Of a stretch of DNA of 64,000 nucleotides, positions 25,589 through 25,755 are shown piece after piece. This DNA comes from Escherichia coli (GTDB lineage: Bacteria > Pseudomonadota > Gammaproteobacteria > Enterobacterales > Enterobacteriaceae): NCBI RefSeq assembly GCF_017348835.2, contig NZ_CP071375.1; one strand, written 5' to 3'. How positions within the stretch are numbered: the stretch's first letter is position 1; each line of letters begins with the position of its first letter. The notes under the pieces are model-generated. The model was given only the letters and a program-made list of their open reading frames with translations. It made no database searches and had not been told where the DNA came from. Position numbers and translations under genes: made by a program.

Positions 25589-25755
25589 CCACTCCTGCCA
25601 TACTCGTCATACTTCAAGTTGCATGTGCTGCGGCTGCATTCGTTCACCCCAGTCACTTACTTATGTAAGCTCCTGGGGCTTCACTCGTTTGCCGCCTTCC
25701 TGCAACTCGAATTATTTAGAGTCTATGAATAATTTCTTAAGCATAGCAGGAGTGG
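25589..25755. repeat. ERIC/IRU-like imperfect palindrome between yajO and dxs
   Basis: Nested inverted repeats; core cgttcaccccagtcacttacttatgtaagctcctggggcttcactcg matches the ERIC core consensus as I remember it; outer arms ccactcctgc / gcaggagtgg. Confidence 0.6.

Follow-up and report, generated by a model that had tools for sequence, protein, structure and literature searches.

An ERIC element in the loop of a conserved leader hairpin upstream of yajO in Escherichia coli, and a candidate antisense promoter at its junction with host DNA

Repeats of the ERIC/IRU (enterobacterial repetitive intergenic consensus) family have been known since 1990–91. Reviews describe them as MITEs (transposable elements of the miniature inverted-repeat kind) which possess terminal inverted repeats, duplicate a TA target and are transcribed into hairpins. 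Within the dxs-yajO region of Escherichia coli K-12, which carries such a repeat, lies S-43, the fourth most abundant p19-captured RNase III double-stranded RNA (dsRNA) cluster among those overlapping protein-coding genes; it was labelled "new AS" (antisense) by Huang et al. 2020, who make no mention of ERIC. The subject of this study is the spacer between dxs and yajO in a 64,000-nucleotide (nt) stretch of E. coli DNA (contig NZ_CP071375.1), called the window throughout; coordinates are positions in it, and (+) and (−) are its strands. We consider it probable that the ERIC copy in this spacer occupies the loop of a hairpin that was there before it and masks the Shine-Dalgarno (SD) sequence of yajO, the copy adjoining a TA just 5' of the SD, and that it is a passenger in the sense RNA and a promoter of antisense RNA in alleles of the K-12 type.

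The gene order in K-12 MG1655 is xseB-ispA-dxs-yajO. In the window yajO and dxs both occupy the minus strand and are separated by 179 bp (25585–25763), not by 180 bp as a sequence-only reading of the same DNA had given. That reading had also treated 25589–25755 as one extended nested palindrome of ERIC type with the outer arms ccactcctgc and gcaggagtgg. Both arms were found, at 25589–25598 and 25746–25755, and extend to 16 nt at 88% complementarity in an inverted-repeat search; the core which it quoted is the exact reverse complement of 25640–25686. The view of a single element had to be given up, however, since this 167-bp palindrome is a composite of ERIC proper (25599–25725) and flanking arms which are host sequence. 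The palindrome itself is real. Its central 32-mer (25647–25678) occurs once in the window and in none of 100 shuffles, and the fold prediction that had been proposed as a check showed the transcribed, minus strand of 25575–25770 to fold far beyond chance (−80.9 kcal/mol versus −49.1 +/- 3.9 in shuffles, z = −8.2); the plus strand gave z = −4.3.

The proposed relationship to ERIC/IRU was borne out by alignment. Against the 127-nt E. coli consensus of Wilson & Sharp, as quoted in Table 1a of Delihas 2007 (PMC2759123), the plus strand of 25599–25725 is identical at 109 of 127 positions (86%) with no gap, and against the Salmonella copy SeRU-1 at 115 of 127. Since the consensus reads on the plus strand, dxs-yajO transcripts hold the reverse complement of ERIC. 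When the spacer was used as a megablast query, approximately 30,400 (30,431) places were hit; they are spread over 5,425 of 5,426 complete E. coli genomes (median per genome, six), and the paralogous ones match only from about position 13 to 150 of the query, i.e. ERIC without the arms. Sites which we take to be those of the primers ERIC1R (25663–25684, +) and ERIC2 (25641–25662, −) each show one mismatch. Every character of the family that was looked at was found: length and alignment, central and terminal inverted repeats, TA ends, dispersed copies, variable occupancy, an intergenic position, co-transcription and a hairpin. The segment 25599–25725 is one full-length ERIC/IRU miniature inverted-repeat element; as such the copy is an ordinary member of a long-known family, and K-12 holds the same one.

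Table 1. Coordinates of the features in and around the dxs-yajO spacer of the window
Feature	Position	Strand	Basis or remark
yajO start codon ATG	25584..25582	−	ORF (open reading frame) table and RefSeq annotation of matching E. coli records
K-12 Term-seq RNA 3' end, equivalent	25584	−	first base of yajO ORF, 3' base of composite hairpin
Host 3' arm of leader helix, contains yajO SD AGGAG (reverse complement of 25592–25596)	25589..25600	−	present in ERIC-free alleles
Junction box TGCCATACT (TGCTATACT in K-12), candidate antisense −10	25596..25604	+	distance to K-12 transcription start site (TSS)
ERIC/IRU element, full length, 127 bp	25599..25725	+	consensus alignment
ERIC terminal inverted repeat, yajO-proximal arm	25602..25623		pairs with 25701–25722; 22 nt, 77% complementary
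K-12 antisense TSS, equivalent	25611	+	Conway operon = 25612–26176
K-12 RNase III/p19 dsRNA cluster S-43, equivalent	25618..25804		K-12 437393–437579
Central ERIC palindrome CCCCAGTCACTTAC/GTAAGCTCCTGGGG	25647..25678		exact palindrome pair
ERIC terminal inverted repeat, dxs-proximal arm	25701..25722		pairs with 25602–25623
GCTATGCTTAA, sigma-S extended −10 match, overlaps anti-SD arm	25737..25747	−	KCTAYRCTTAA, 11/11
Host 5' arm (anti-SD) CCACUCCUGCUAUG	25742..25755	−	alignment and ERIC-free alleles
Start of the "entire 5' UTR" (untranslated region) of yajO, Adams et al.	25756	−	at TCCACTCC; forward cloning primer TCCACTCCTGCTATGCTTAAG (PMC7815308)
dxs stop codon TAA	25766..25764	−	ORF table and RefSeq annotation of matching E. 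coli records

The full 179-bp spacer is present in 2,843 of the 5,426 E. coli genomes (52%), K-12 among them, and about 2,580 (~48%) are without the insertion, the yajO-dxs span being 454 bp in ERIC-free genomes versus 579 bp in filled ones. In O157:H7 and S88 the spacer is 54 bp long (CCACTCCTGCCATGAATAATTTCTTAAGCATAGCAGGAGTGG), with both arms intact around a loop of ~22 nt. Filled and empty alleles differ by exactly 125 bp (25601–25725), that is, the 127 bp of the element minus one copy of a duplicated dinucleotide, as expected of a TA duplication. K-12 and Escherichia albertii have TA on both flanks of ERIC; to the left of the window copy the dinucleotide is CA, the empty sites of E. coli have CA/TG, and the window allele thus shows a degenerate duplication. 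The comparison with K-12, likewise proposed beforehand, revealed the same ERIC copy and a single substitution in the spacer, at 25599, which is C in the window and T in K-12. The exact K-12 spacer occurs in ~1,250 genomes. A second large haplotype (~900 genomes) combines C at 25599 with G at 25736, and the haplotype of the window is itself rare.

The host arms form a helix of their own. On the mRNA strand, a 71-nt segment made up of the empty spacer and short flanking stretches folds into a 14-bp helix (−28.9 kcal/mol, z = −4.4) which contains the SD AGGAG. Representative genomes were scanned for YajO, and loci were obtained from 80 species (Escherichia, Citrobacter, Salmonella, Enterobacter, Klebsiella, Kosakonia and others). 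In all 80 loci dxs lies directly upstream of yajO, and in approximately 74 species the spacer measures 54–75 nt, with an almost invariant 5' arm CTCCTGCTATGCTTAA and a 3' arm AGCAGGAG(Y)GG. The conservation of the helix was measured on 69 distinct spacers from other Enterobacteriaceae (alignment A2, in which the 3' arm is columns 62–77). In that arm GGAG does not vary at all, and the neighbouring G, C and A are conserved at 90% or above; for the 16-pair helix 83.8% of cells are paired, a figure that falls to 33–50% if the partners are shifted against each other. Compensatory changes occur at five pairs, among them pair 23–75, which is CG in 48 spacers, UA in 10 and UG in 7, and none of 500 shuffles attained any of the observed helix measures. 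This host hairpin, which pairs the anti-SD arm CCACUCCUGC with the SD GCAGGAGUGG, is older than ERIC and covaries across the Enterobacteriaceae. No description of the anti-SD helix, of its conservation or of the ERIC embedded in it was found in the searchable literature.

Partition-function folding of read-through RNA from three alleles (window, K-12 and the ERIC-free O157) gave the SD a probability of being unpaired of 0.000 in each. Since this value is the same in filled and empty RNAs, ERIC leaves the predicted masking of the SD unchanged; by prediction, dxs-yajO RNA has its SD fully paired with or without the element. In the sense RNA the element would lengthen the ~14-bp helix with its ~22-nt loop into an imperfect hairpin of ~165 nt and, as regards masking, it would be a passenger. 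Only on the antisense strand would it clearly have gained a function, that of a promoter.

Two further observations concern this hairpin. GCAU at the end of dxs (last codon and stop; 25767–25770, −) pairs, in the fold of minimum free energy, with AUGC at the yajO start (25581–25584, −), and the dxs stop and yajO start codons are juxtaposed at the base of the composite hairpin in filled and empty alleles alike. The invariant 16-nt 5' arm CTCCTGCTATGCTTAA (25737–25755, −) is accounted for by pairing over about half of its length, the remainder being an exact sigma-S −10 consensus.

ERIC elements occupy the same loop in other species. The type strain of E. albertii carries one at the same site, with a nested 78-bp insert which is also seen in some E. 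coli (e.g. CT265); the E. albertii and CT265 spacers are identical at 247 of 257 positions (96%) versus 92–94% for the flanking genes, a figure which does not discriminate between an ancestral and a transferred copy. E. whittamii and Citrobacter sp. MGH106 show the empty form. Divergent full-length ERICs, identical to the consensus at 91–99 of 127 positions, are found in Phytobacter diazotrophicus, P. ursingii and Kosakonia sp. S29; they are oriented as in E. coli and lie at a TA directly 5' of AGCAGGAG, the Phytobacter copies having the structure TA-ERIC-TA (loci L028, L034 and L040, ~1343–1480). One metagenome-assembled genome (L041, ~1444–1490) has only a remnant of ~24 nt from the two ERIC termini, and P. 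massiliensis and other Kosakonia are empty. This distribution, in E. coli/E. albertii on the one hand and Phytobacter/Kosakonia on the other, suggests that ERIC has inserted recurrently into one and the same loop, which is a possible insertion hot spot. The equivalent position of the TA hints at a structural target preference of the mobile element.

The evidence for an antisense promoter comes from K-12, whose coordinates were converted to window positions by means of gene tables in the papers concerned and a gap-free alignment. With T at 25599 the plus strand of K-12 reads CCTGC-TATACT, an extended −10 element of the form TGnTATACT, which includes CTATACT, given as a published sigma-S −10 consensus in PMC5650638. 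The TGC of this box is contributed by the host arm and its hexamer by TA plus the ERIC terminus. The TSS predicted from the box alone is 25611, or 437386 in U00096.2, and a Thomason TSS is listed at "437386 +", 7 nt after TATACT. For cluster S-43, the entries of Table S1e of Huang et al. 2020 (mBio) give this Thomason TSS, 437386(+), together with a second antisense TSS (437493) and a Conway antisense operon of 564 nt (437387–437951, unannotated). S-43 runs 49 nt beyond the hairpin and 41 nt into dxs; because it extends past the hairpin into dxs, it represents sense/antisense duplexes and not the intramolecular stem. The sigma-S ChIP-seq (chromatin immunoprecipitation sequencing) peak which Peano et al. 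assigned to yajO (437329–437469) maps to 25554–25694, where it brackets the antisense promoter (footprint −55 to +20 = 437331–437406).

The K-12 allele has a −10 hexamer on the antisense strand, a TSS ~7 nt downstream of it and RNA polymerase occupancy, and a putative promoter at the junction of ERIC and host DNA is the best explanation of the K-12 antisense TSS, operon, ChIP and dsRNA data. A junction box of the K-12 type would drive antisense RNA through ERIC into the 3' end of dxs, and this RNA would form dsRNA with the sense transcript, to be cut by RNase III. The window allele, CATACT, keeps the −11 A, the −7 T and the upstream TG; because its −12 base is C, its promoter is predicted to be weaker, and probably is weaker than that of K-12.

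A simple sigma-70 scan missed both extended −10 boxes of the spacer, on account of its requirement for a −35 hexamer. The only site that it flagged, a weak TTAAGA-18-AATAAT made in part by ERIC, was not used. Nor were the sense and antisense RPM values of Table S1c of Huang et al., the strand column of which contradicts Table S1b. As to the end of the antisense RNA, a K-12 plus-strand RNA 3' end at 438373 (PMC7815308) corresponds to 25822(+) and would give an RNA of ~212 nt from 25611, and a terminator-like hairpin with a T-run, antisense to dxs, is present at 25933–25951(+).

On the sense strand, the statement that ERIC lies between co-oriented genes and is transcribed proved correct, as K-12 transcripts cross the element. 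Adams et al. 2021 (eLife, PMC7815308) reported by Term-seq a 3' end at 438135(−), with 38,352 reads and at distance 1 from the yajO start codon, for which their Rho score is 2.89 and their intrinsic terminator score 1.03 (threshold 3.0). A further region of Rho termination was placed at 438058, within yajO, and a lacZ fusion to the yajO 5' UTR plus ORF was more than 2-fold up in rhoR66S (PMC7815308). A candidate −10 element, CATAAT, for the start of the UTR at 25756(−) overlaps the dxs stop codon. The following chain is proposed. On dxs-yajO transcripts yajO would be poorly translated because its SD is masked; Rho would therefore terminate just inside yajO; the 3' ends would be trimmed back to the base of the hairpin, and the hairpin would cap the dxs mRNA. 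We infer this sequence of masking, Rho action and trimming from K-12 observations that were published individually. An effect on mRNA stability, which the sequence-only reading had suggested, is plausible, as it fits the K-12 3' end, the Rho termination and the RNase III dsRNA. The "hairpin 5' of yajO" of Gordon et al. 2017 was discarded as a misprint for yajQ (panE-yajQ).

The second extended −10 box of the spacer, GCTATGCTTAA, lies on the sense strand and may be a conserved sigma-S promoter of yajO, a suggestion drawn from its sequence which we regard as possible, on the doubtful side. The box agrees at 11 of 11 positions with KCTAYRCTTAA, the sigma-S extended −10 consensus which PMC5650638 quotes from Weber 2005; the 64-kb window has no other match, 0.14 being expected, and the box stands at the equivalent place in 68 of 80 other-species loci. 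Columns 34–36 of the 5' arm are unpaired in half of the species, so that only part of this invariant arm is needed for pairing, and the box is thus kept beyond the need of the helix. In its listing, Peano 2015 counts yajO as sigma-S-dependent, a secondary citation of Weber 2005. Transcripts starting ~7 nt past the box, in the loop (~25733), would be without the anti-SD arm and translatable, the SD being 46–74% unpaired in them by prediction, and in their 5' UTR ERIC would amount to an insertion of 125 nt at about +9. Against this, the K-12 cluster table lists no minus-strand TSS inside the loop, and the 5' UTR start of Adams et al. is upstream of the whole hairpin. The sigma-S ChIP peak, once considered as support for the sense box, was dropped as such, since its coordinates fit the antisense box and fall short of 25737–25747.

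Several points weigh against the combination of masked leader, passenger ERIC and antisense promoter which we prefer. With no minus-strand TSS listed and the ChIP peak ending short of it, GCTATGCTTAA may not be a promoter. The assignment of the antisense promoter is made from sequence and the exact distance to the TSS; C is found at −12 in the window and in roughly 900 or more further genomes, and in these the promoter may be weak or silent. Masking of the SD is a thermodynamic prediction. All transcript data come from K-12, which contains ERIC, so that the shares of ERIC and of the host hairpin in the 3' end, in Rho termination and in stability are inseparable. Lastly, a genome frequency of ~50% fits near-neutrality, and any effect of ERIC should be small, the element being polymorphic (52% of genomes).

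If ERIC were a neutral passenger altogether, all regulation would come from the host hairpin and the antisense transcript would be noise. Presence and absence close to 50:50 in 5,426 genomes, identical predicted masking with and without ERIC, and tolerance of the T/C polymorphism at −12 agree with such neutrality. It is nonetheless rather unlikely, given that in K-12 ERIC coincides with an antisense TSS, with a sigma-S ChIP peak and with one of the most abundant RNase III dsRNA clusters, and that the ERICs of E. coli/E. albertii and of Phytobacter/Kosakonia share the loop and the orientation. Still less can be said for a mode of action taken over by analogy from Yersinia, in which a co-transcribed ERIC would expose an RNase E site in its terminal repeat and, depending on orientation, destabilise the upstream message, here that of dxs. 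This behaviour is described for Yersinia ERICs in passages of reviews citing De Gregorio 2005, and the present copy is co-transcribed and begins 38 nt after the dxs stop codon; it is, however, clamped within a strong host helix, and the 3' end seen in K-12 is at the hairpin base, outside ERIC, which makes a role of this kind improbable. That the structure is the intrinsic (Rho-independent) terminator of an xseB-ispA-dxs operon is very unlikely: a very stable hairpin does follow dxs and an RNA 3' end does lie at its base, but no U-tract comes after the hairpin, a terminator scan of the minus strand of the spacer yielded nothing, and the published intrinsic score stays below its threshold beside a Rho score of 2.89. 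The notion that all of 25589–25755, arms included, is a single ERIC-type element, to which the complementary arms flanking ERIC symmetrically and stacking on its stem as one long hairpin in the filled allele had lent some appeal, is refuted by the empty-site alleles, both arms being kept where the 125 bp are lacking and in the 69 ERIC-free spacers of other genera, while paralogous ERICs match only query ~13–150 and the consensus ends at 25599 and 25725.

Taken with the sigma-S box, the masked leader and the junction promoter can be linked into a wider proposal, which we put forward tentatively, as an attractive possibility falling short of probable. The spacer would be an undescribed cis-regulatory leader in which the anti-SD helix insulates yajO from dxs read-through and triggers Rho, while the sigma-S box yields unmasked stationary-phase transcripts; a mirror-image promoter of sigma-S type, made by ERIC from the host TGC and its own TATACT, would give rise both to the "new antisense" RNA of K-12 and to S-43. 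Were this so, the natural filled and empty alleles and the T and C alleles would be a ready-made experiment on the effect of a MITE on an operon. Independently of it, the ~50:50 presence and absence of ERIC and the T/C polymorphism at −12 provide natural, isogenic-like contrasts for effects of ERIC on expression. Of the two flanking genes, dxs specifies the first enzyme of the MEP (methylerythritol phosphate) isoprenoid pathway. The anatomy of the region has been corrected, in that a host regulatory hairpin and a mobile element are separate things. The hairpin offers a structural basis for both the 3' end and the Rho termination that have been published for yajO, and a highly abundant and unexplained antisense/dsRNA locus of K-12 would be tied to the ERIC-host junction promoter. 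The added value is modest and consists in the putative link of an ERIC terminus to this hot spot and in the conserved leader, both supported by sequence and third-party data.

Some observations on the element and its surroundings may be added. A mechanical ORF call extended yajO by 24 codons (24610–25656, −) to a GTG within ERIC, because ERIC reads open in frame with yajO. The cell almost certainly makes no use of this extension, as the annotated start, which is also the one conserved across species, is the ATG at 25584 behind its conserved SD. The 78-bp insert lies within ERIC between ...GCTGC and TCGTTCACC (CT265, L004:455–532; E. albertii, L006 ~1378–1455). It is present in 646 of the 5,426 E. 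coli genomes and at least 99% identical in 121 of them (CT265, the one checked, has it at this locus); some 512 genomes hold a 92–95% copy, apparently elsewhere on the chromosome. Its only Rfam match is a weak one to AaHKsRNA22 (25 bits versus a threshold of 39.8), and it is presumably one of the known "insertions within ERIC sequences". A 36-nt fragment on a 438.7-kb E. coli replicon (NZ_CP114132.1, 28476–28511) corresponds to query 13–48 and is identical to the yajO-proximal end of a K-12-type ERIC plus junction; this large non-chromosomal record gave the weakest match in every search.

Rfam contains no family for ERIC, and a search of the spacer against it produced sub-threshold matches only (V_AS5, Ysr49 and mir-644 noise). 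The model of RF02818 (V_AS5, Vibrio antisense RNA 5) aligned over positions 1–129 with 25603–25726(−) at E = 1.6e-10. With 52.5 bits against a gathering score of 96, the spacer is not a member of RF02818 by the Rfam threshold. RF02766 (Ysr49, Yersinia) matches part of the ERIC in the same 25603–25726(−) region. V_AS5 looks like a Vibrio element of ERIC type which has been catalogued as an antisense RNA, and the RF02818 and RF02766 "sRNA" (small RNA) families may both be ERIC-type repeats.

How the locus compares with described systems depends on which of its parts is considered. The ERIC/IRU/RU-1 repeats (Sharples & Lloyd 1990, Hulton et al. 1991, Wilson & Sharp 2006) have the same length, repeats and TA ends and are likewise intergenic, co-transcribed, multi-copy and variable between strains. 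The element itself is no different from them; what sets the window copy apart is its nesting in a host regulatory hairpin and the change of the left TA to CA. Rfam V_AS5 resembles it in aligning over its full length, yet scores below the gathering threshold. The Yersinia ERIC to which reviews, citing De Gregorio et al. 2005, ascribe a part in RNA stability is of the same family and also co-transcribed between two genes, whereas the K-12 data for the present locus point to Rho and RNase III and not to RNase E. The Correia/NEMIS repeats of Neisseria, according to reviews, are again co-transcribed MITEs with a hairpin RNA that is an RNase III substrate and with ends that can supply promoter parts. 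The parallel here is an ERIC terminus which would supply a −10 hexamer at a locus that is an RNase III dsRNA hot spot; unlike Correia/NEMIS, which is an unrelated sequence family, the RNase III products here appear to come from sense/antisense duplexes. Finally, among the SD-sequestering leaders with Rho polarity of Adams et al. 2021 (PMC7815308), yajO is listed with a 3' end at the border of 5' UTR and ORF and with Rho-dependent read-through, and the helix found here goes beyond that report in offering a structural reason for the behaviour of yajO towards Rho.

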